From: Escherichia coli
GTDB lineage: Bacteria > Pseudomonadota > Gammaproteobacteria > Enterobacterales > Enterobacteriaceae
Reading direction: 5' to 3' (one strand)
DNA: 64,000 nt
NCBI RefSeq assembly: GCF_003334305.1
Contig: NZ_QOWS01000013.1
Below, one piece after another: positions 1 to 22,385 of this stretch. Positions within the stretch are counted from its first letter, which is position 1; every line of letters begins with the position of its first letter. The notes under the pieces were generated by a model that had not been told where the DNA came from, did not search any database, and saw only the letters and a program-made list of their open reading frames with translations. A program made the translations under genes and the position numbers.

Positions 1-108
1 GTAGCGCGGTGGTCCCACCTGACCCCATGCCGAACTCAGAAGTGAAACGCCGTAGCGCCGATGGTAGTGTGGGGTCTCCCCATGCGAGAGTAGGGAACTG
101 CCAGGCAT
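1..108 (+). rRNA. rrfD: 5S rRNA, 3' portion (5' end lies outside window)
   Basis: Sequence matches the E. coli 5S rRNA from about nt 13 to its 3' end (…GGGAACTGCCAGGCAT); followed by tRNA-Thr and a second 5S, as in the distal end of rrnD. Confidence 0.93.
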
Positions 109-120
109 CAAATTTAGCGT

Positions 121-196
121 GCTGATATGGCTCAGTTGGTAGAGCGCACCCTTGGTAAGGGTGAGGTCCCCAGTTCGACTCTGGGTATCAGCACCA
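121..196 (+). tRNA. thrV: tRNA-Thr (anticodon GGU)
   Basis: 76-nt cloverleaf sequence GCTGATATGGCTCAGTTGGTAGAGCGCACCCTTGGTAAGGGTGAGGTCCCCAGTTCGACTCTGGGTATCAGCACCA with encoded CCA end; GGT anticodon in the loop. Confidence 0.95.
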
Positions 197-233
197 CTTT
201 TTAGGTTAAAGTTCGGCAGATTAGAAAAGAATT

Positions 234-353
234 TGTCTGGCGGCAGTAGCGCGGTGGTCCCACCTGACCCCATGCCGAACTCAGAAGTGAAACGCCGTAG
301 CGCCGATGGTAGTGTGGGGTCTCCCCATGCGAGAGTAGGGAACTGCCAGGCAT
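234..353 (+). rRNA. rrfF: 5S rRNA, complete 120 nt
   Basis: Second full-length 5S copy (TGTCTGGCGGCAGTAGCGCGG…CCAGGCAT) directly downstream of tRNA-Thr. Confidence 0.95.
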
Positions 354-364
354 CAAATAAAACG

Positions 365-399
365 AAAGGCTCAGTCGAAAGACTGGGCCTTTCGTTTTA
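365..399 (+). terminator. rrn T1-like rho-independent terminator
   Basis: GC-rich hairpin AGGCTCAGTCGAAAGACTGGGCCT followed by a T-rich tract, immediately 3' of the 5S rRNA. Confidence 0.8.
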
Positions 400-533
400 T
401 CTGTTGTTTGTCGGTGAACGCTCTCCTGAGTAGGACAAATCCGCCGGGAGCGGATTTGAACGTTGCGAAGCAACGGCCCGGAGGGTGGCGGGCAGGACGC
501 CCGCCATAAACTGCCAGACATCAAATCAAGCGA

Positions 534-568
534 AAGGCCATCCGAAAGGATGGCCTTTTTGCTTTTCG
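534..568. terminator. rrn T2-like hairpin terminator, also placed to terminate convergent yhdZ
   Basis: Hairpin AAAGGCCATCCGAAAGGATGGCCTTTTTGCTTTT; A-run on one side and T-run on the other, located between the rrn 3' end and the yhdZ stop. Confidence 0.75.
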
Positions 569-581
569 AACTAACATTCAA

Positions 582-1340
582 TTAATGGATTACCTGCGAT
601 AAAAATGCCCTCGTACGCTCTGATTTAGGATGCGCAAAAAATTCATCAGGTGCAGCTTGTTCCACTATCTCCCCACGATCCATAAAAATTACCCGGTCAG
701 CGACGGTACGTGCAAACCCCATCTCATGTGTTACACACAACATTGTCATACCCGACTGCGCCAGCCCAATCATCGTATCCAGCACCTCTTTCACCATCTC
801 CGGATCGAGCGCCGACGTTGGCTCATCAAACAACATAATTTTCGGCTTCATACACAGCGAACGCGCAATGGCAACGCGTTGCTGCTGACCACCAGAAATT
901 TGTCCGGGAAACTTATGCGCATGTTCGGCAATTCTCACCCGCTCAAGGTAATGCATCGCCAGAGCTTCAGCCTCTTTCTTTGGCATCTTGCGTACCCAAA
1001 TCGGTGCCAGGGTACAGTTCTGTAGAACGGTCAGATGAGGGAAGAGATTGAAATGCTGAAAGACCATTCCCACTTCCTGCCGGACGCGCTCAATATTGCG
1101 GATATCTTCATTAAGTTCGATGCCATCTACCACGATCCGTCCCTGTTGATGTTCTTCCAGATGATTAATACAACGAATGGTTGTCGATTTACCGGAACCT
1201 GAAGGGCCACACAGAACGATCCGTTCTCCCGGTTGCACGGTTAAATTTATATTTTTCAAAACATGGAATTGTCCATACCATTTATTGACGTTTTCCAGCG
1301 TAATCATCGCGTTAGCAGGTTGCAGTAAAATTTGGCTCAT
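582..1340 (-). CDS. yhdZ: Polar amino-acid ABC transporter ATP-binding protein
   Basis: 252-aa ORF with Walker [10 protein letters not shown] and ABC signature [13 protein letters not shown]; last gene of the yhdWXYZ cluster. Confidence 0.93.
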
Positions 1341-1347
1341 AGTGTCC

Positions 1348-2454
1348 TCAATGCGGTGTACGCCCGGTGTTAAAACGTTTTTCCAGATGCTGGCTATAGC
1401 GCGACATGCTGAAACAGAAGATCCAGTAGATCAGCGCGGCGAAAACATACCCTTCCGTCGACATACCCAACCAGGTGGGATCAACGGTTGCCTGCTGAAC
1501 GCTACTGAAAAGATCGAACAACCCGATAATGATCACCAGGCTGGTATCTTTGAAGAGTGCGATGATGGTATTTACCAGCCCAGGAATTACCAGCTTCAAC
1601 GCCTGTGGCAGAATAACCAGCCCCTGAGTTTTCCAGTAACCCAACGCCAGCGACTCTGCCGCTTCATATTGCCCTTTAGGCAGCGCCTGTAATCCGCCTC
1701 GCACGACTTCCGCAACATATGCTGACTGAAACAGGATCACGCCAACCAGCGCGCGGATCAGTTTGTCGATATTGGTGCCTTCTGCCATAAACAAAGGCAG
1801 CATGACCGAAGACATAAACAATACGGTAATCAGCGGTACGCCGCGCCAGAACTCGATAAAAATGACCGATAAGATACGCACAATCGGCATATGGGAGCGG
1901 CGACCTAACGCCAGTAAGATCCCCCACGGTAGCGCCCCCGCAATCCCAACGGATGCAATAATTAAAGTTAGCGTCAGCCCGCCCCATTGCCGGGTTTCAA
2001 CCCGCTCCAGACCAAAAAAACCGCCATACATCAGCCACCAGACAATCAGTGGGTAAATCACCGCCCAGACCGCAATATAGCGACCGCGATGCGGGAGTAT
2101 TTTCCAGAACATTGGTGCGATTGACACAAGGCCAATCAGTAATGCCAGGTTAATTCGCCAGCGTTGGTCGTGTGGGTAAAGTCCATACATAAACTGACCA
2201 AATCGTTCGTGGATGAAGACCCAACAGGCACCGGCTTTTGTGCAGTCGGCACGCGTTGAGCCAACCCAATTAGCCTGCAAAAATGCCCAGTTCAGCAACG
2301 GTGGGATCAGTTCCCACATCAACCATATGCAGCCAATAGTCAGCAGGCTATTGCTCCAGCTGGAGAACAGATTTTTTCGCACCCACACCATCGCGCGGCT
2401 TGAGTTATGGCTCGCTGGGCGCGAGGGCTGAGACAGCAATACTTTTGTCATCAT
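1348..2454 (-). CDS. yhdY: Amino-acid ABC transporter permease
   Basis: 368-aa multi-helix hydrophobic ORF between yhdX and yhdZ; start may be the second Met (MMTK…). Confidence 0.9.
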
Positions 2455-2460
2455 GACTCC

Positions 2461-3642
2461 TTAGCGTTCAACGATCGCGATGCGGCGGTTATAGATATTC
2501 ATCAGCAGCGAGATAGTCAGGCTGATAATCAGATAGACCGACATGGTCATGGCTATCGTCTCGATGGCTTGCCCCGTCTGGTTCAGCACGGTGCCAGCAA
2601 ACAGCGAAACCATATCGGGATAGCCAATAGCGGCGGCAAGAGAGGAGTTTTTGACGATGTTGAGATACTGGCTGGTTAACGGCGGAATAATCACTCGCAG
2701 TGCCTGGGGAATAATGACCTGGCGTAGCGTAACCGGGTTGGGTAATCCCAGTGACCGAGCCGCTTCATGTTGACCATAAGGCACTGCCTGGATCCCAGCG
2801 CGGATAATCTCGGCGATAAATGCAGATGTATAAACCGAAAGTGCCAGCGTTAAGGCTGCCAGTTCAGGAATTAAAACCATCCCGCCGCGGAAGTTAAAGC
2901 CTCGTAGGGCTGGGACATCCCAGTGTAGTGCTGCGCCAAAAAGCCATTGCGCCAGTAAAGGCAAACCAATGATCAACACTGCGGCGATCGGCCAGGTGCG
3001 GCGCAGTTGTCCGGTCTTTATCTGGTATGTTTTATTAAAGCGGAATAGCCCAACAGAAAGGACTATAGCCATAACAACAGCCAGGATAAACGCAATAAAT
3101 CCGTCTCCCAGCTGCGGTGACGGAATATAAAGCCCACGATTGCTCAAAAAGGCCAGATCAAACGCGCTCACAGCCTGGCGTGGTCCGGGCAAATTGCGCA
3201 ACACGGCAAAGTACCAGAAGAAGATTTGCAGCAGCGGGGGAATATTACGGAAGATCTCAATATAAATTGTGGATAGTTTTCGTAGCAGCCAGTTATCCGA
3301 AAGTCTCGCCAGACCGATAAAGAAGCCTAAAACAGAAGCGAACACAATACACAATGCAGAAACCAGTAGCGTATTGAGTAAGCCGACAATAAAAACGCGT
3401 CCGTAGGTGTCGCCCTGCTGGTAATCGATCAAATGCTGGACAATACCGAAGCCAGCGCCGCGATCCAGAAAGGCAAAACCTGAAGTAATGCCACGATTAT
3501 TGAGATTCGTTACAGTGTTGTGAAATAACCAACCAACAATGCCGACAACAGCAACAACGGCAAGGATCTGGAATAACCAGGCGCGAACCGTAGGGTTGGC
3601 AAAAGAGAGTGAGCCTTTAACGGTTGAGCGGCGATGAGACAT
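2461..3642 (-). CDS. yhdX: Amino-acid ABC transporter permease
   Basis: Hydrophobic permease ORF; track ORF (to 3660) trimmed to internal Met MSHRRSTVKG… matching the ~393-aa protein as I recall it. Confidence 0.88.
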   Translation of the reverse strand: MSHRRSTVKGSLSFANPTVRAWLFQILAVVAVVGIVGWLFHNTVTNLNNRGITSGFAFLDRGAGFGIVQHLIDYQQGDTYGRVFIVGLLNTLLVSALCIVFASVLGFFIGLARLSDNWLLRKLSTIYIEIFRNIPPLLQIFFWYFAVLRNLPGPRQAVSAFDLAFLSNRGLYIPSPQLGDGFIAFILAVVMAIVLSVGLFRFNKTYQIKTGQLRRTWPIAAVLIIGLPLLAQWLFGAALHWDVPALRGFNFRGGMVLIPELAALTLALSVYTSAFIAEIIRAGIQAVPYGQHEAARSLGLPNPVTLRQVIIPQALRVIIPPLTSQYLNIVKNSSLAAAIGYPDMVSLFAGTVLNQTGQAIETIAMTMSVYLIISLTISLLMNIYNRRIAIVER

Positions 3643-3709
3643 AGAAACCTCGGAAAGCATAACGCTGAAGAGAGCGCCGCCGTAGCGACGCCCGTTACCT
3701 CACACCGAC

Positions 3710-16510: not shown

Positions 16511-17860
16511 TTATTTTTCCTGAAGACCGAGTTTTTTCTCCAGATAGTGGATGTTAGTGCCACCATGCTGGAAGTTCTCGTCATTCATGATGCGGATCTG
16601 CAGATCAACGTTGGTTTTGATACCGTCGATGATCAGCTCCTGCAGCGCATTCTTCATGCGAGCAATCGCCACGTCACGGTTTTCACCGTAGCAAATCAGC
16701 TTACCGATCATTGAGTCATAGTACGGCGGTACGGTGTAGCCCGCGTAGATATGAGACTCCCAACGCACTCCAAAACCGCCAGGTGCGTGGAAACGGGTGA
16801 TTTTGCCTGGGCTTGGCAGGAAGGTGTTCGGATCTTCGGCGTTGATACGACATTCCACCGCATGGCCGCGAACGTGAACTTCTTCTTGCTTGATCGACAG
16901 CGGTTGACCGGCAGCGATACGCAGCTGTTCTTTGATCAGGTCAACGCCGGTGATCATTTCTGTAACCGGGTGTTCTACCTGAATACGGGTGTTCATTTCG
17001 ATGAAATAGAACTCGCCGTTTTCGAACAGGAACTCGAAAGTACCTGCACCGCGATAGCCGATATCAACACACGCTTTAGCACAACGTTCGCCGATGTAGC
17101 GACGCAGTTCCGGTGTAATTCCCGGTGCTGGTGCTTCTTCGACCACTTTCTGGTGACGACGCTGCATAGAGCAGTCACGTTCCGCCAGATAGATAGCGTT
17201 GCCCTGACCGTCAGCCAGTACCTGAATCTCGACGTGGCGAGGATTTTCCAGGTATTTCTCCATGTAAACCATATCGTTATTGAATGCGGCTTTCGCTTCC
17301 GCACGGGTCATGGAGATGGATTGTGCCAGTTCAGCGTCGCCGCGCACTACACGCATACCACGACCGCCGCCGCCGCCGGAGGCTTTGATAATCACCGGAT
17401 AACCTATGCGTTTAGCAATGGCACGGTTTTTATCCATATCGTCGCCCAGCGGGCCGTCAGAACCTGGTACGCAAGGAACGCCCGCTTTTTTCATCGCCGC
17501 GATTGCCGACACTTTGTCACCCATCAGGCGAATAGTGTCTGCTTTCGGGCCAATGAAGATAAAGCCGGAGCGTTCAACCTGCTCGGCAAAGTTGGCGTTC
17601 TCGGAGAGGAAGCCGTAACCCGGATGGATTGCTACTGCGCCGGTGATTTCAGCGGCGCTTATGATTGCCGGGATGTTCAGATAACTTTTTACTGACGGAG
17701 CAGGGCCAATACAGACCGTTTCATCTGCCAGTAATACGTGTTTTAGATCGCGATCCGCGCTGGAGTGCACAGCGACAGTCTTGATGCCCAGTTCTTTACA
17801 GGCACGAAGAATACGCAATGCAATCTCGCCGCGGTTGGCAATAACAATTTTATCCAGCAT
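16511..17860 (-). CDS. accC: Biotin carboxylase subunit of acetyl-CoA carboxylase
   Basis: ATP-grasp biotin carboxylase; start set at [33 protein letters not shown]… (track ORF extended by 13 codons). Confidence 0.97.
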
Positions 17861-17870
17861 GTTCGCCTCG

Positions 17871-18341
17871 TTACTCGATGACGACCAGCGGCTCGTCAAA
17901 TTCTACCGGTTGTCCACTTTCGACCAGAATTGCTTTCACGGTACCGGATTTGTCCGCTTCGATCTGGTTCATCATTTTCATGGCTTCAACGATGCACAGG
18001 GTATCGCCCACGTTGACTTTCTGACCCACTTCGATGAACGCTTTTGCGTCCGGGCTTGGGGTGCGGTAGAAAGTACCAACCATCGGGGAGCGTACGATGT
18101 GACCACTGATTTCCGCTGCTGCTGGCGCTTCCATGGAAGGAACGGTCGCCGGAGCGGCTGCGTTAGATTGAGCTGGCTGCTGCATCATTGGTGCAGCGTA
18201 AGCTTGTTGCATCACAGGGAAACTTGCGGCAGGAGCTGCACGGCTGATGCGTACTGACTCTTCGCCTTCGGAGATTTCCAGTTCGGAGATGCCTGATTCT
18301 TCAACCAGCTCGATCAGTTTTTTAATCTTACGAATATCCAT
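17871..18341 (-). CDS. accB: Biotin carboxyl carrier protein
   Basis: 156-aa ORF with Ala/Pro-rich linker and biotinylation motif [10 protein letters not shown]. Confidence 0.98.
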
Positions 18342-19318
18342 GAGTGGGTTCCGTACTCTTTGTTTAGTGTGATTGTGACAGGCGTTTCACCGCCGTCTGT
18401 AAAGCGTATGCCCCGACAGCTGTATGCATAGCGATAAATTCCAGCAGGCCGGGACGCCGGTCTATTTTGCCCCAGAGTGTCAATGTTAGACTTGACGGAC
18501 ATTGTGCAGCGATCTGCTGCTATCCTCCGGCAAAAAACAAAATATACCTTCGTTGCGCCAATGTCACCTTTTCCGCAGCGCAAAAACTGCGTCAGGGAGG
18601 ACGAGGTCGCACATTATAACGATTTCGTAGCAATTGGCAGCTAAATACTGGTCTTATCAGGGAAGATAATCAACAGCTAACATGTAAATAACCTTCAACA
18701 CCGTGTAATTTGCAACAAGCCGCACAATTCACGAAATTAGCGCCATCATCGACGGAACTTCTTATAACGTAAGGTGAAAAGCTGAAAAGCCAGCCCTGCG
18801 AAGATGAGGGGCTGCAATGAGATAATCTTCACAGACCACAAATAATGTAGGGATGCCAGGATCGCGACAAGATAGACGACATTACGCAGCGGTTGCTGGG
18901 GATTACCCAATTTTCACTGCATCGTCTGGATAGATGTGAATGCTAAAGCACGCAAAATCAACCGACTGACAATTCTCAGCATTAAATAGGTTCGAGTGGT
19001 TAATTTGTAGTCAAATAAAATCAGATTATTCACCCCATGGGACCAGAAATCAGTAACAGGTTAAGCGTAGTGTCGCCCAGGCAAAGCACCATAAACCTAA
19101 CAGGCGACGGAGGCATATCAATAATGGCTGTTTAGAGGAGTATCAATGCGCATCAATTTGTGGTCAGTCGAAATCATGACTTTCCAGTTTGGATGATGTT
19201 GTACAACTTCCTGACCAAGGTGTTCGACGAAAGCTGTCCGGCTAACCGCTTTTCCCGTTAACCGATTGAATAATGATGTCAAAATGAGTTCCCTCTCTTA
19301 TTATTCCTTGCTAAATGG

Positions 19319-20293
19319 TTAGTTAACCTTCACCAGCGTGCGACCCTGGATCTGGTTATTAATGATGGCCTCGGCAAAGTTCGGTGCCTCTGACAGAGAT
19401 ATCTCTTTTGCCGCCTGGGTATAGAATGATTCCGGTAAATCGGCGACCAGTCGCTGCCAGGCTTGTGCGCGGCGTTCTGGTGGCGTCATTACTGAATCCA
19501 CCCCTTGCAAACGGACATTACGCAGAATAAATGGCATGACCGTGGTTGGCAGAGTAAAACCACCCGCCAGACCACAGGCCGCCACGCAGCCGCCGTAATT
19601 CATTTGCGCCAGCACTTTTGCCAGCACTTTGTCGCCAACAGTGTCAATTGCCCCAGCCCAGACTTGTTTTTCCAGAGGACGGGATTCGGCAAACTCATCA
19701 CGAGGGAGAATACGACTGGCACCTAAACTTTTCAGATATTCATGGGTACTTTCGCGACCGGAAACGGCAACGACCTGATAACCCAACTTATGCAGCAGCG
19801 CCACGGCGGTACTGCCGACGCCACCACTGGCACCCGTCACGACAATCTCCCCGTCCTGCGGGCGAACACCGGCATCTTCCAGCGCCATCACACACAGCAT
19901 GGCGGTAAAACCGGCAGTACCGATAATCATTGCTTTACGCGCGTCCAGCCCTTGCGGCATGGCAACCAGCCAGTCACCTTTCACTCGCGCCTGCTCCGCC
20001 AGCCCACCCCAGTGGTTTTCACCAACGCCCCAGCCAGTGAGTAACACCTCCTGACCGGCATGAAAACGCGGATCTTCGCTGGTGCGTACAGTTCCGGCAA
20101 AATCGATCCCAGGAATCATCGGAAAATTACGGATGATTTTTCCCTTACCGGTAATCGCCAGCGCATCTTTATAGTTCAGGCTCGACCAGTGAACATCAAC
20201 CGTGACATCGCCCTCCGGCAGGCGACTTTCGTCAAGTGTCTGTACCGATGCGAGAGTTTTGCCGTCCTGCTGTTCTAAAAGTAACGCCTGCAT
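19319..20293 (-). CDS. acuI: Acrylyl-CoA reductase / zinc-independent MDR-family oxidoreductase
   Basis: 324-aa ORF, medium-chain dehydrogenase/reductase fold with NAD(P)-binding glycine motif (VVTGASGGVGS); conserved position between accB and csrD (formerly yhdH). Confidence 0.92.
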   Translation of the reverse strand: MQALLLEQQDGKTLASVQTLDESRLPEGDVTVDVHWSSLNYKDALAITGKGKIIRNFPMIPGIDFAGTVRTSEDPRFHAGQEVLLTGWGVGENHWGGLAEQARVKGDWLVAMPQGLDARKAMIIGTAGFTAMLCVMALEDAGVRPQDGEIVVTGASGGVGSTAVALLHKLGYQVVAVSGRESTHEYLKSLGASRILPRDEFAESRPLEKQVWAGAIDTVGDKVLAKVLAQMNYGGCVAACGLAGGFTLPTTVMPFILRNVRLQGVDSVMTPPERRAQAWQRLVADLPESFYTQAAKEISLSEAPNFAEAIINNQIQGRTLVKVN

Positions 20294-20444: not shown

Positions 20445-22385
20445 ATGAGATTAACGACGAAATTTTCGGCCTTTGTTACGCTGCTCACCGGGTTAACAAT
20501 TTTTGTGACTTTGCTGGGCTGTTCGCTAAGTTTCTACAACGCAATTCAGTATAAGTTTAGTCATCGCGTTCAGGCGGTGGCGACGGCGATTGATACCCAC
20601 CTTGTGTCGAATGACTTCAGCACATTAAGGCCACAAATTACCGAATTAATGATGTCGGCAGATATCGTTCGTGTAGACCTGCTCCATGGTGATAAACAGG
20701 TTTATACCCTGGCCAGAAATGGTAGTTATCGTCCGGTTGGCTCCAGCGATCTGTTTCGCGAACTGAGTGTTCCGTTGATAAAGCATCCGGGGATGTCGCT
20801 GCGTCTGGTTTATCAGGATCCGATGGGCAACTATTTCCATTCTTTAATGACTACCGCGCCGCTCACGGGGGCGATTGGCTTTATCATTGTTATGCTCTTT
20901 CTGGCGGTACGCTGGTTACAACGGCAACTTGCCGGGCAAGAATTGCTGGAAACCCGGGCTACTCGTATCTTAAACGGTGAGCGTGGCTCTAATGTGTTGG
21001 GAACCATCTATGAATGGCCGCCCAGAACCAGCAGTGCGCTAGATACGCTGCTTCGTGAAATTCAGAACGCACGCGAACAACACAGCCGTCTTGATACGCT
21101 GATCCGCTCTTATGCCGCCCAGGACGTGAAAACCGGCCTCAATAACCGACTCTTTTTCGATAATCAGTTAGCAACGTTACTGGAAGATCAGGAGAAAGTA
21201 GGTACCCACGGGATCGTGATGATGATTCGTCTGCCGGATTTCAATATGTTGAGCGATACTTGGGGGCACAGCCAGGTTGAAGAACAGTTCTTCACTCTGA
21301 CGAATCTGCTGTCGACATTTATGATGCGCTACCCTGGCGCACTGCTGGCGCGTTACCACCGCAGTGATTTTGCTGCGCTGTTACCGCACCGGACGTTAAA
21401 AGAGGCAGAGAGCATCGCCGGTCAGTTAATCAAAGCCGTCGATACCTTGCCGAACAATAAAATGCTCGATCGCGACGATATGATCCACATTGGTATCTGC
21501 GCCTGGCGTAGTGGTCAGGATACCGAGCAGGTAATGGAACATGCAGAGTCTGCCACGCGTAATGCGGGATTGCAGGGCGGCAATAGCTGGGCTATTTACG
21601 ATGACTCGTTGCCTGAAAAAGGACGCGGTAATGTTCGCTGGCGTACGCTTATCGAGCAAATGCTCAGTCGCGGCGGCCCGCGCCTTTATCAAAAACCGGC
21701 GGTTACTCGCGAAGGTCAGGTTCATCATCGCGAACTCATGTGCCGCATCTTCGATGGTAATGAAGAGGTTAGCTCGGCGGAGTATATGCCGATGGTCTTG
21801 CAGTTTGGCTTATCGGAAGAGTATGACCGTCTGCAAATCAGCCGTCTTATTCCACTATTGCGTTACTGGCCAGAGGAAAATCTGGCGATTCAGGTTACCG
21901 TTGAGTCGCTGATTCGCCCGCGTTTTCAGCGTTGGCTGCGCGATACGTTAATGCAATGTGAAAAATCACAACGAAAACGCATAATTATTGAACTTGCAGA
22001 GGCCGATGTAGGTCAACATATCAGTCGTTTACAACCTGTTATTCGTTTAGTGAATGCTTTAGGGGTACGGGTAGCCGTCAACCAGGCTGGTTTGACGCTG
22101 GTAAGCACCAGTTGGATCAAAGAACTTAATGTTGAGTTACTCAAGCTCCATCCGGGGCTGGTCAGAAACATTGAGAAGCGAACGGAGAACCAGCTGCTGG
22201 TTCAAAGCCTGGTGGAAGCCTGCTCCGGGACCAGCACCCAAGTTTACGCCACCGGTGTGCGTTCGCGAAGCGAGTGGCAGACCCTGATTCAGCGCGGTGT
22301 TACAGGCGGGCAAGGGGATTTTTTCGCGTCCTCACAGCCACTTGATACTAACGTGAAAAAATATTCACAAAGATACTCGGTTTAA
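20445..22385 (+). CDS. csrD: CsrB/CsrC decay factor with degenerate GGDEF and EAL domains
   Basis: 646-aa ORF with N-terminal TM segments, HRSDF in place of GGDEF and ELM in place of EAL. Confidence 0.93.
   Translation: MRLTTKFSAFVTLLTGLTIFVTLLGCSLSFYNAIQYKFSHRVQAVATAIDTHLVSNDFSTLRPQITELMMSADIVRVDLLHGDKQVYTLARNGSYRPVGSSDLFRELSVPLIKHPGMSLRLVYQDPMGNYFHSLMTTAPLTGAIGFIIVMLFLAVRWLQRQLAGQELLETRATRILNGERGSNVLGTIYEWPPRTSSALDTLLREIQNAREQHSRLDTLIRSYAAQDVKTGLNNRLFFDNQLATLLEDQEKVGTHGIVMMIRLPDFNMLSDTWGHSQVEEQFFTLTNLLSTFMMRYPGALLARYHRSDFAALLPHRTLKEAESIAGQLIKAVDTLPNNKMLDRDDMIHIGICAWRSGQDTEQVMEHAESATRNAGLQGGNSWAIYDDSLPEKGRGNVRWRTLIEQMLSRGGPRLYQKPAVTREGQVHHRELMCRIFDGNEEVSSAEYMPMVLQFGLSEEYDRLQISRLIPLLRYWPEENLAIQVTVESLIRPRFQRWLRDTLMQCEKSQRKRIIIELAEADVGQHISRLQPVIRLVNALGVRVAVNQAGLTLVSTSWIKELNVELLKLHPGLVRNIEKRTENQLLVQSLVEACSGTSTQVYATGVRSRSEWQTLIQRGVTGGQGDFFASSQPLDTNVKKYSQRYSV

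Follow-up and report, generated by a model that had tools for sequence, protein, structure and literature searches.

The 977-bp gap between acuI and accB of Escherichia coli is very probably a composite of decayed genes and one functional regulatory region, the latter consisting of the accBC promoter and a long leader. Its length is accounted for by known features and not by a hidden small RNA gene: two pseudogenes of the curated K-12 annotation, yrdE and yrdF, together with the accBC leader explain the spacer, and no new gene is needed. The locus is ordinary and already annotated, with a modest evolutionary footnote. Judged by its conservation across species, the accBC promoter is the promoter of an old aroQ-accBC operon, and the leader appears to be the leftover of a lost aroQ gene. 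All positions given below refer to the window, i.e., the entire analysed stretch of 64,000 nucleotides (contig NZ_QOWS01000013.1 of assembly GCF_003334305.1), unless K-12 coordinates are indicated.

Extent and variation of the acuI-accB gap

The gap is flanked by acuI (yhdH; 19319-20293) and accB (17871-18341), both on the minus strand. A first-pass annotation of this DNA had described the spacer from the acuI stop (19319) to the accB start (18341) as ~1 kb in length and as unusually long, and both statements hold, the exact length being 977 bp: across the surrounding 41 kb (±20 kb) of a strain with a 100% identical gap, the intergenic regions next in size measure 434, 430, and 398 bp, so that the gap exceeds the next one more than twofold. 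The spacer had further been called free of open reading frames (ORFs). This is correct insofar as the longest ORF in the gap comprises 89 aa and none is intact, but it overlooks two gene remnants. The 89-aa ORF itself (18314-18583, minus strand) runs across the accB start and does not represent a gene, in line with its earlier classification as spurious. The gap was found in all 5426 complete E. coli genomes (5426/5426). Since PGAP leaves the region blank in most of them, similar flags will come up again.

Sequence variation divides the gap into two parts, and this contrast is directly observed, as are the homology and synteny described below. Among eight E. coli strains, the 404 bp upstream of accB (18342-18745) are nearly invariant with three variable sites, whereas 18746-19318 varies at 8-13% of sites, compared with 2-5% in the flanking genes. 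Broken down by feature, the proportion of variable sites in these strains amounts to 0.7% for the promoter and leader, 1.9% for accB, 4.7% for accC, and 4.0% for acuI, while yrdE (12.7%) and yrdF (8.4%) reach two to three times the values of the flanking genes and form the most variable stretch of the locus. Approximately 573 of the 977 bp (18746-19318, ~60%) are made up of the two remnants, termed yrdE' and yrdF' here, and of a 36-bp spacer (19283..19318, minus strand) that extends from the acuI stop to the TTG start of yrdF' and carries one variable site among the eight strains.

Remnants of a DUF1444-domain gene and of msrQ

The yrdF' pseudogene (19140..19282, minus strand; b4697) corresponds exactly to NC_000913.3 3404495-3404637 and comprises the first 48 codons, beginning with the TTG start, of a DUF1444-domain gene. 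Forty-six of its 48 residues are identical in WP_000838307.1, the 276-aa product of the intact gene in E. coli HS. The intact version, designated DUF1444 domain-containing protein by PGAP, occurs in 12% of the E. coli genomes (670 of 5426) as well as in E. albertii.

The adjoining yrdE' pseudogene (18746..19139, minus strand; b4646) likewise maps exactly to its K-12 counterpart (NC_000913.3 3404638-3405031) and is a relic of msrQ (yedZ), the gene for the heme-binding membrane subunit of the MsrPQ methionine sulfoxide reductase. The homology spans residues ~68-199, and yrdE' holds the slot that msrQ occupies beside aroQ-accB in other Enterobacterales. In tblastn searches, identity to K-12 MsrQ was 82% over residues 68-95 and 68% over residues 101-193 (E=2.6e-38). 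The first 67 msrQ codons are absent, a frameshift is located at ~19037-19052 and an in-frame TGA at 18914-18916, while the original stop codon is kept at 18746-18748. A 54-aa ORF of yrdE' (18746-18910) matches positions 142-193 of the 212 positions of the NCBIfam model NF003831 (MsrQ; E=2.4e-10) with 40.3 bits, a score below the 130-bit full-length cut-off because the 54-aa query is a fragment. No intact frame of full MsrQ length (~199-211 aa) is present. On account of the missing N-terminus, the frameshift, and the TGA, yrdE' is considered a pseudogene and not a functional MsrQ member. PGAP annotates a pseudogene at this position in JJ1886, HS, and GPEC1209 under the names “sulfoxide reductase heme-binding subunit YedZ” or “cytochrome b family protein,” and in JJ1886 an additional 1-bp deletion frameshifts the 54-aa MsrQ fragment. 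Both yrdE and yrdF are called pseudogenes in the literature (PMC7648144), and yrdE::kan has been employed as a linked marker at a neutral site. Relative to K-12, the window strain carries two substitutions in yrdF and 15 in yrdE; its pseudogenes have the same features as those of K-12 MG1655 with no material difference. Taken together, the 573 bp appear to be non-functional and to drift at a roughly neutral rate.

In contrast to the functional msrPQ genes of E. coli at the hiuH locus, yrdE' is truncated, frameshifted, interrupted by a stop codon, and fast-evolving, and it lacks msrP. A tblastn search of the gap for MsrP similarity found none (best E=1.6), and no msrP adjoins yrdE', whereas msrP is located directly upstream of msrQ in 45 other loci. 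At the DNA level, yrdE' is 77% identical to K-12 msrQ compared with 66-67% to the accB-linked msrQ genes of other genera; the K-12 MsrQ protein is 85% identical to the accB-linked MsrQ of Citrobacter. The junction between the two remnants would be the product of a deletion, present in most E. coli, that removed the stretch from codon 49 of the DUF1444 gene to approximately codon 67 of msrQ and thereby fused yrdF' to the msrQ relic. A duplication junction in K-12 MsrQ was considered as well and discarded: its unique C-terminal tail (LRSLFNRL...) is similar to the DUF1444 N-terminus, 16 of 24 nt being identical over eight codons, and the local DNA alignment is no better than those of shuffled sequences.

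Ancestral gene order

An analysis of 80 gammaproteobacterial accB loci revealed that the order msrP-msrQ-aroQ-accB is the rule in Enterobacterales, and an intact msrP-msrQ pair occupies this site in, among others, Citrobacter, Enterobacter, Serratia, and Yersinia. Adjoining aroQ and accB genes were also identified in Vibrio, Aeromonas, and Pasteurellaceae. Comparison of these loci yields acuI-msrP-msrQ-aroQ-accB-accC as the reconstructed order in the Enterobacterales ancestor, in which the aroQ-accBC unit would have been transcribed from a single promoter ~110 nt upstream of aroQ. In the Escherichia lineage, the working msrPQ pair is now found at the hiuH locus and the copy at the ancestral site would have decayed: msrP would have disappeared, and msrQ persists as yrdE' alone. 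A DUF1444 gene adjoins acuI. The locus thereby offers a worked case of gene relocation, with msrPQ functional at the hiuH locus and the ancestral-site copy caught in mid-decay, and two different deletion alleles at the decaying msrPQ site still segregate in E. coli.

The second loss concerns aroQ, which has disappeared from Escherichia, Citrobacter, Superficieibacter, and Phytobacter. In E. coli, AroD, a type I enzyme, takes the place of the type II 3-dehydroquinate dehydratase AroQ. The nearly invariant part of the gap (18342-18745) is collinear with the spacer between msrQ and aroQ, with the 5'UTR and ATG of aroQ, and with the aroQ 3' end. According to this comparison, the leftover aroQ promoter, 5'UTR, start codon, and last 15 codons would now act as the accBC promoter and a leader of ~265 nt, with the accB ribosome-binding site situated in the old aroQ-accB spacer.

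The accBC promoter

The expectation of the first-pass annotation that the gap holds the accBC promoter and leader is supported. A promoter scan identified a sigma-70-like site matching 10 of 12 consensus positions, with the -35 element CTGCCA at 18635-18640, a 16-nt spacer, and the -10 element TATAAT at 18613-18618. This site lies in a block (18607..18680, minus strand) that is conserved from E. coli to Yersinia and is assigned to the ancestral aroQ-accBC operon and now to accBC. The sequence GATTATCTTCCCTGATAAGACCAGTATTTAGCTGCCAATTGCTACGAAATCGTTATAATG of this block recurs almost unchanged in Enterobacter, Citrobacter, and Pseudescherichia and can be recognised in Yersinia, and the block is kept in 45 Enterobacterales loci; in Vibrio, Aeromonas, and others, a GCTGC...TATAAT motif lies equally far from aroQ. 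Among the eight E. coli strains, the block contains one variable site. Upstream of the -35 element, it includes the putative operator CTGATAAGACCAGTA (18645-18659), whose CTGGTC half resembles the FadR operator consensus.

RNA polymerase would initiate ~7 nt downstream of the TATAAT element, which places the predicted transcription start at ~18605-18608 and the leader length at ~265 nt. A long accBC leader was reportedly described already in the 1990s. Li and Cronan are said to have noted in 1993 that the leader mRNA is unusually long and contains an internal ORF, and their work reportedly placed the accBC start “about 300 bp upstream,” compared with the ~265 nt predicted here. The leader of that description would correspond to window positions 18342 to ~18606 and would include the ORF that begins at the relic aroQ ATG discussed below.

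An apparent aroQ relic in the leader

In the aroQ-accB-accC operon of other Gammaproteobacteria, which has a 5'UTR of ~105 nt, the promoter, 5'UTR, start codon, 3' end, and spacer are collinear with E. coli 18342-18680. E. coli differs from this operon in two respects: ~370 nt of the aroQ reading frame have degenerated or been deleted, and the Shine-Dalgarno sequence has mutated from GGAG to GCAG. Therefore, the transcript carries a non-coding leader of ~265 nt in place of a first cistron, and the unusual length of the leader and its ORF are explained by its descent from an upstream aroQ cistron.

Three segments follow the ancestral 5'UTR on the minus strand. The first (18412..18502) comprises the aroQ start relic (ATG at 18500-18502) and a degenerate stretch; it was assigned by DNA collinearity and contains one variable site among eight strains. 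Collinearity with Enterobacter, Pseudescherichia, and Yersinia runs through the aroQ ATG (CACAATGTCCGTCAAG compared with CACAATGGCGGACAAG), and the first relic codons read MSVKSNI compared with MADKFHI of aroQ, while the stretch 18412-18502 aligns poorly with Citrobacter. The second segment (18364..18411), detected by tblastn against the gap, contains the last 15 aroQ codons and the TAA stop codon (18364-18366), is invariant among the eight strains, and matches Enterobacter AroQ at 14 of 15 codons (E=4e-6). The third is the 22-nt aroQ-accB spacer (18342..18363), which holds the accB ribosome-binding region ACAAAGAGTACGGAACCCACTC, is conserved to Enterobacter and recognisable in Yersinia, and likewise shows no variable site among the eight strains. 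Over 89 nt running into accB, E. coli and Enterobacter DNA are 95.5% identical.

Every examined lineage that lacks aroQ has the same C-terminal aroQ relic. With a profile built from 64 AroQ sequences, the result was E=0.03 for E. coli, where the match covers 14 residues only, and E=0.001-0.002 for Phytobacter and Superficieibacter; in E. albertii, the match is not significant (E=3) because an in-frame stop codon shortens the motif. An intermediate state is found in Phytobacter L024, which keeps the Shine-Dalgarno sequence as well as 17 N-terminal and 46 C-terminal aroQ codons. AroQ similarity was also sought in the middle of the leader (18412-18500), where chance-level matches (TLTL..., FIxxH) were the only result, and none is claimed. 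As the protein signal is short and the middle is blank, the reading as a relic rests mainly on DNA collinearity and synteny. The middle part is lineage-specific, yet it hardly varies among E. coli strains; a newly gained function may be the reason, or linkage to accB may keep its diversity low. A literature text search for aroQ together with accB returned nothing relevant, and an aroQ origin of the leader was not among its results.

The relic ATG now opens a 62-codon ORF that extends across the accB start to a stop codon at 18314-18316. This leader ORF (ATG 18502), the 54-aa MsrQ fragment (18746-18910), and a 54-aa yrdF ORF (19118-19282) all exist as reading frames and could be taken for functional small proteins; PGAP labels the yrdF ORF a hypothetical protein in one strain, and the leader ORF is the one reportedly noted by Li and Cronan. 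Such a function is, however, extremely improbable for any of the three. Both remnants are among the highly variable sequences described above, the MsrQ fragment is frameshifted in JJ1886, and the leader ORF lacks the aroQ Shine-Dalgarno sequence and ends after ~10 codons in Citrobacter. Validated small proteins are part of the K-12 reference, and it has none in the interval from yrdE to accB.

Small RNA candidates

The length of the spacer had also been proposed to leave room for an unannotated small RNA. This proposal is not supported: the remnants and the 36-bp spacer occupy ~573 of the 977 bp, no Rfam match reached its gathering threshold, and a scan of the gap for intrinsic terminators found none. 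Among the 3' ends listed in published E. coli Term-seq data, two fall within the gap on this strand, both of them weak, at 18950 and at 18404 (K-12 position 3405373), the latter inside the C-terminal aroQ relic. Both ends are represented by ~800-1000 reads and show no Rho dependence, and the one that was scored reached 2.1 as an intrinsic terminator, where the cut-off is 3.

At a permissive E-value, the Rfam search of 17800-19800 yielded nothing beyond a spurious snoRNA match and a sub-threshold match to Ysr190 (RF02764) at 18539-18638, which scored 25.3 bits (E=0.39) against a gathering score of 66. Ysr190, which is reported to be expressed in Yersinia ruckeri, scores 96-131 bits in Yersinia and 77.5 bits in Serratia, and below the threshold in Enterobacter and Citrobacter. 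Matches to this family lie on the aroQ-accB strand, 33-35 nt ahead of the aroQ ATG, and the E. coli match lies 36 nt upstream of the relic ATG. In Yersinia and Serratia, Ysr190 takes in the -10 box together with the 5'UTR immediately before aroQ, and the E. coli match spans the same block; as it begins inside the promoter, it overlaps the -10 box. Unlike family members, the E. coli match remains below the threshold and has no discrete 3' end among the listed Term-seq ends.

The Ysr190 match and the weak Term-seq ends could be taken to indicate an independent trans-acting small RNA, either as a Ysr190 homologue or as a transcript of the yrdE/yrdF part. Such a gene is very unlikely, given that the match lies far below the gathering score, is situated on the accB strand, and is contiguous with the mRNA. 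In addition, the terminator scan found no terminator-like site, the two weak ends have the low read numbers and terminator score given above, the yrdE/yrdF part is the most variable of the locus, and the curated K-12 annotation contains no RNA gene here. The conserved element belongs to the accBC mRNA and not to an independent gene, and the earlier suggestion of a regulatory structure in the gap stands for the leader only, in which the first ~80 nt contain a hairpin with compensatory changes in Enterobacteriaceae and which is part of the nearly invariant 404 bp.

Conserved elements in the 5' part of the leader

Positions 18503..18606 (minus strand), with which the leader begins, represent the ancestral aroQ 5'UTR of ~103 nt, as judged from an alignment of 45 Enterobacterales; in 58 loci, the length of this 5'UTR ranges from 96 to 117 nt. 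The alignment contains an invariant GUGACA (18562-18567), a likewise invariant UAUUUU block, and a U-rich tract (18532-18546). The hairpin CGCAGUUUUUGCGCUGCG (18574-18591) was defined by structure counts in Enterobacteriaceae. It is nested, with a covarying inner helix and an invariant outer helix that never covaries, and it is followed by UAUAUUUUGUUUUUU, where both the terminator scan and the listed Term-seq 3' ends are blank. In the hairpin, 87-89% of alignment cells are paired, and covariation amounts to 0.24-0.30 compared with 0.15-0.16 in shuffled alignments (reached by 0 of 500), with the structure derived from the same sequences. All seven pairs of the inner helix (7/7) are changed on both sides among 26 sequences in a model-based alignment, one alignment being fitted to the tested structure. 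Controls slid along the sequence reach 26-59% paired cells compared with 89% for the hairpin. Within E. coli, a JJ1886 SNP at 18579 converts a U·G pair into a U-A pair and keeps the pairing.

Autoregulation by AccB and activation of accBC by FadR have been stated repeatedly (PMC3896788; PMC11602165; a 2026 bioRxiv preprint), the mechanism of AccB autoregulation is not known according to the literature, and overproduction of OmrA leads to a decrease in accBC mRNA. It is probable that the conserved hairpin and blocks modulate mRNA stability or expression. As an addition to the reading of the gap as gene remnants plus the accBC regulatory region, it is possible, if tentative, that 18503-18606 constitutes a cis-regulatory RNA, i.e., an attenuator or a protein- or sRNA-binding leader, which controls aroQ-accBC or accBC, for example in AccB autoregulation, growth rate control, or the response to OmrA. 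The invariant blocks across Enterobacterales, the compensatory changes in seven hairpin pairs, the SNP that preserves pairing, and the low variability of the leader are consistent with this proposal, as is the Yersinia and Serratia homologue Ysr190, in whose consensus U residues come after a long hairpin. However, RNAalifold found no consensus structure in 45 diverse leaders, as the MAFFT alignment does not keep the variable hairpin in register, and a weak consensus of -3.7 kcal/mol in 18 Enterobacteriaceae. The fold of the entire leader is not distinct from shuffles (z = -1.18), and z-scores for the 5' fold, followed beyond Enterobacteriaceae, are mixed over 58 loci (mean -1.2, 30 of 58 below -1). 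The lack of covariation in the outer helix, the lack of a predicted terminator, and the lack of an E. coli Term-seq 3' end at the U tract among the ends listed also argue against this proposal, as does the origin of the tested structure.

A more far-reaching version is rather doubtful: that the segment is an undescribed, Enterobacterales-wide cis-regulatory leader RNA, inherited from the aroQ-accBC operon, orthologous in position to Ysr190, and a target for AccB, growth rate, or OmrA, with the rest of the leader conserved by a function gained after the loss of aroQ. For studies of accBC regulation by AccB, FadR, growth rate, or OmrA, the comparison distinguishes ~100 nt of leader that are anciently conserved from ~160 nt that are lineage-specific.

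Content and conservation of the acuI-accB gap

The gene order csrD (20445-22385, + strand), acuI/yhdH (19319-20293, - strand), accB (17871-18341, - strand) and accC (16511-17860, - strand) is that of the E. coli chromosome. The gap between acuI and accB extends from 18342 to 19318, as the first-pass annotation had placed it, and its 977 bp are indeed exceptional, the next spacers in the surrounding 41 kb measuring 434, 430 and 398 bp. No intact ORF of more than 89 aa lies within it. It is not devoid of gene-like sequence: PGAP annotates a pseudogene here in some strains, and the curated reference NC_000913.3 lists yrdF and yrdE. Every one of the 5426 complete E. coli genomes searched has the gap, with 97-100% identity in nearly all and 100% identity in strain AMSCJX02. 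It is real as an observation and ordinary in content, about 60% being annotated pseudogene debris and the remainder the known accBC promoter and leader. What is new is evolutionary: promoter and leader both go back to an aroQ-accBC operon, and by position the E. coli leader corresponds to the Yersinia RNA family Ysr190. Unrelated to the gap, the end of an rRNA operon (23S, 5S, tRNA-Thr, second 5S) occupies about 1-3700 at the start of the window, as annotated in a strain with an identical gap (L087).

Gene remnants and the probable relocation of msrPQ

The upstream 573 bp of the gap are gene remnants. Converted by window = 18341 + (3405436 - K-12 coordinate), the yrdF pseudogene (b4697, K-12 3404495-3404637) corresponds to 19140-19282 and yrdE (b4646, K-12 3404638-3405031) to 18746-19139. 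The yrdF remnant (yrdF') preserves the opening 48 codons of a gene whose 276-aa product, named DUF1444 domain-containing protein by PGAP, is still encoded intact by E. coli HS and E. albertii. The yrdE remnant (yrdE') derives from msrQ, which encodes the heme-binding membrane subunit of MsrPQ: translated searches (tblastn) align 19136-19053 with residues 68-95 of K-12 MsrQ (82% identity) and 19036-18758 with residues 101-193 (68% identity), and a 54-aa ORF (18749-18910, - strand) matches positions 142-193 of 212 in the MsrQ model NF003831 (E=2.4e-10). The remnant is broken by a frameshift between the two segments and by an in-frame TGA at 18914-18916. PGAP names the pseudogene “sulfoxide reductase heme-binding subunit YedZ” or “cytochrome b family protein,” and in one strain also annotates a 54-aa hypothetical protein inside the gap. 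No trace of MsrP was detected in the gap. Among eight diverse strains, 12.7% of sites vary in yrdE' and 8.4% in yrdF', the corresponding figures being 4.0-4.7% for acuI and accC and 1.9% for accB; JJ1886 carries an additional 1-bp deletion in the remnants. In the literature, both genes are regarded as pseudogenes and yrdE::kan serves as a neutral linked marker.

Two alleles of the gap exist (window 19039-19145; L002:3198-4060; L005:2308-3123). The short one, present in the window and in K-12, carries yrdF', while the long one combines an intact 276-aa DUF1444 gene with a shorter msrQ relic and occurs in E. albertii and in 670 of the 5426 complete E. coli genomes. No single deletion would turn one allele into the other: the relic starts at residue ~118 in the long allele and at ~68 in the short one, and since it is shorter in the long allele, the two represent independent deletions from a fuller ancestor. 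One long allele, in strain 23AR0998, contains an inserted IS1A (NZ_CM132249.1 515251-516862).

An AccB scan with one genome per species returned 80 loci, in which acuI-msrP-msrQ-aroQ-accB-accC is the rule for Enterobacterales and aroQ-accB-accC is retained in Vibrio, Aeromonas, Pasteurellaceae and others. Solely Escherichia, Citrobacter, Superficieibacter and Phytobacter lack aroQ (type II 3-dehydroquinate dehydratase), and Escherichia alone lacks msrP and has msrQ reduced to a relic. Functional E. coli msrPQ is located at the hprRS-hiuH locus (L086:1979-3619), whereas other Enterobacterales carry it beside aroQ-accB. The MsrQ of this locus is 85% identical to the accB-linked MsrQ of Citrobacter, a value close to that for Citrobacter versus Enterobacter (83%). 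The DNA of yrdE' is closer to K-12 msrQ (77% identity) than to accB-linked msrQ of other genera (66-67%), which suggests relocation by duplication with subsequent loss of the original copy. On these comparisons, the simplest reading would be that msrPQ was duplicated or relocated within the Escherichia lineage and that the copy at the ancestral site then decayed. K-12 MsrQ also bears a unique 18-aa C-terminal tail straight after the conserved RYKK (L086:3560-3619), whose start, LRSLFNRL, resembles the DUF1444/yrdF N-terminus (L-T/K-SLFNRL), TTG codon included, with 16 of 24 nt identical at 19259-19282. This likeness could mark a duplication junction from the msrPQ move; local DNA alignment of the msrQ 3' end with 19259-19282 was no better than shuffles.

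aroQ remains and the accBC promoter

The 404 bp adjoining accB are, judging from DNA alignments, the old front and back ends of aroQ. Window 18759-18492 is collinear with the Enterobacter msrQ end, msrQ-aroQ spacer and aroQ 5'UTR, into the aroQ ATG; overall identity is 74%, and the promoter block at 18607-18680 is nearly the same in both. Over 18410-18322, identity to the final 47 nt of aroQ, the spacer and the accB start is 95.5%. The relic ATG (18500-18502) reads CACAATGTCCGTCAAG in E. coli and CACAATGGCGGACAAG in Pseudescherichia and Yersinia. Of the 15 codons that close aroQ (18367-18411), 14 match Enterobacter AroQ, and the TAA stop is retained, while ~370 nt of intervening aroQ are lost or unrecognisable. 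The same C-terminal relic is present in all aroQ-less lineages examined, shortened by a stop in E. albertii, and Phytobacter, where 17 codons are left at the N-terminal end and 46 at the C-terminal end, represents an intermediate. Where aroQ had the Shine-Dalgarno GGAG, E. coli and E. albertii now read GCAG and Citrobacter GAAG. The accBC leader is reportedly unusually long and contains an ORF, for which the aroQ remains account; a literature search found no paper tying this leader to aroQ.

The first-pass presumption that the gap houses the accBC promoter and leader is supported by the sole strong predicted sigma-70-like site (CTGCCA, 16-nt spacer, TATAAT; 18640-18613; score 10/12), situated in the conserved block upstream of accB. 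Enterobacteriaceae share this block almost unchanged, and it can still be recognised in Yersinia, Serratia, Photorhabdus and Hafnia. A GCTGC...TATAAT motif occurs at equal distance from aroQ in Vibrio and Aeromonas, and ..TTGCTGC..N..TATAAT with a ~105-nt 5'UTR at constant spacing is shared by Vibrio, Aeromonas, Photobacterium, Grimontia, Oceanisphaera and Aliiglaciecola (L063, L069, L072-L075, L077, L079, L083, L084; about 115 nt upstream of aroQ). Aliiglaciecola additionally has the TAAGACCAGTATTT block found upstream of the E. coli -35. The 5'UTR to the aroQ ATG would measure 96-117 nt across 58 loci and ~103 nt in E. coli, and the accBC leader consequently ~265 nt (~18606 to 18342). Leader and promoter together show three variable sites per 404 bp in eight strains. 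The mid-leader (18412-18500) is specific to the lineage, its alignment being poor even with Citrobacter; in eight E. coli strains it has one variable site in 89 nt, where ~11 would be expected at the yrdE' rate. A recently gained function, or else linkage to accB, could explain this near-invariance.

Predicted RNA structure in the accBC leader

Apart from a spurious snoRNA hit, Rfam yielded only a sub-threshold match, to Ysr190 (RF02764), at 18539-18638 (25.3 bits, threshold 66). Hits of 77-131 bits to Ysr190 in Yersinia and Serratia are situated directly upstream of aroQ and overlap the -10 box; from this position, the family is the aroQ-accBC leader. The E. coli accBC leader is its positional counterpart but scores below threshold.

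It had been suggested that the gap leaves room for a small RNA or regulatory structure. A discrete small RNA or attenuator is disfavored by the whole-leader fold (z = -1.18) and by the lack of any predicted intrinsic terminator. Among the 3' ends listed from Term-seq (Adams et al., 2021), two weak ones map to the accB strand of the gap and none to the leader U tract. One, at 18404 (K-12 3405373; Rho score 0.93, intrinsic score 2.1), falls 63 nt upstream of accB within the aroQ C-terminal relic; the other, at 18950 (K-12 3404827), lies inside yrdE', which implies that some transcripts from acuI run on across the pseudogenes.

The suggestion of a regulatory structure is partly supported, by a conserved, putative 5' hairpin with covariation. 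GUGACA and UAUUUU blocks are invariant in an alignment of 45 leaders; consensus folding gave no structure on the wide leader alignment and a weak one on a narrower alignment. A hand-drawn three-helix structure has 87% of cells paired (18 sequences) and, after covariance-model realignment, 89% (26 sequences) versus 26-59% in slid controls, with a covariation of 0.30 versus 0.15 in shuffles (attained by 0 of 500; 26 sequences), figures biased in its favor as it was drawn from the same sequences and the second alignment was fitted to it. The outer helix never varies, the inner hairpin (18574-18591) shows both-side changes at seven of seven pairs, and a SNP at 18579 within E. coli converts a U·G pair to U-A. 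A regulatory role of this hairpin region is plausible, since AccB is subject to autoregulation without a known mechanism and accBC mRNA drops upon OmrA overproduction.
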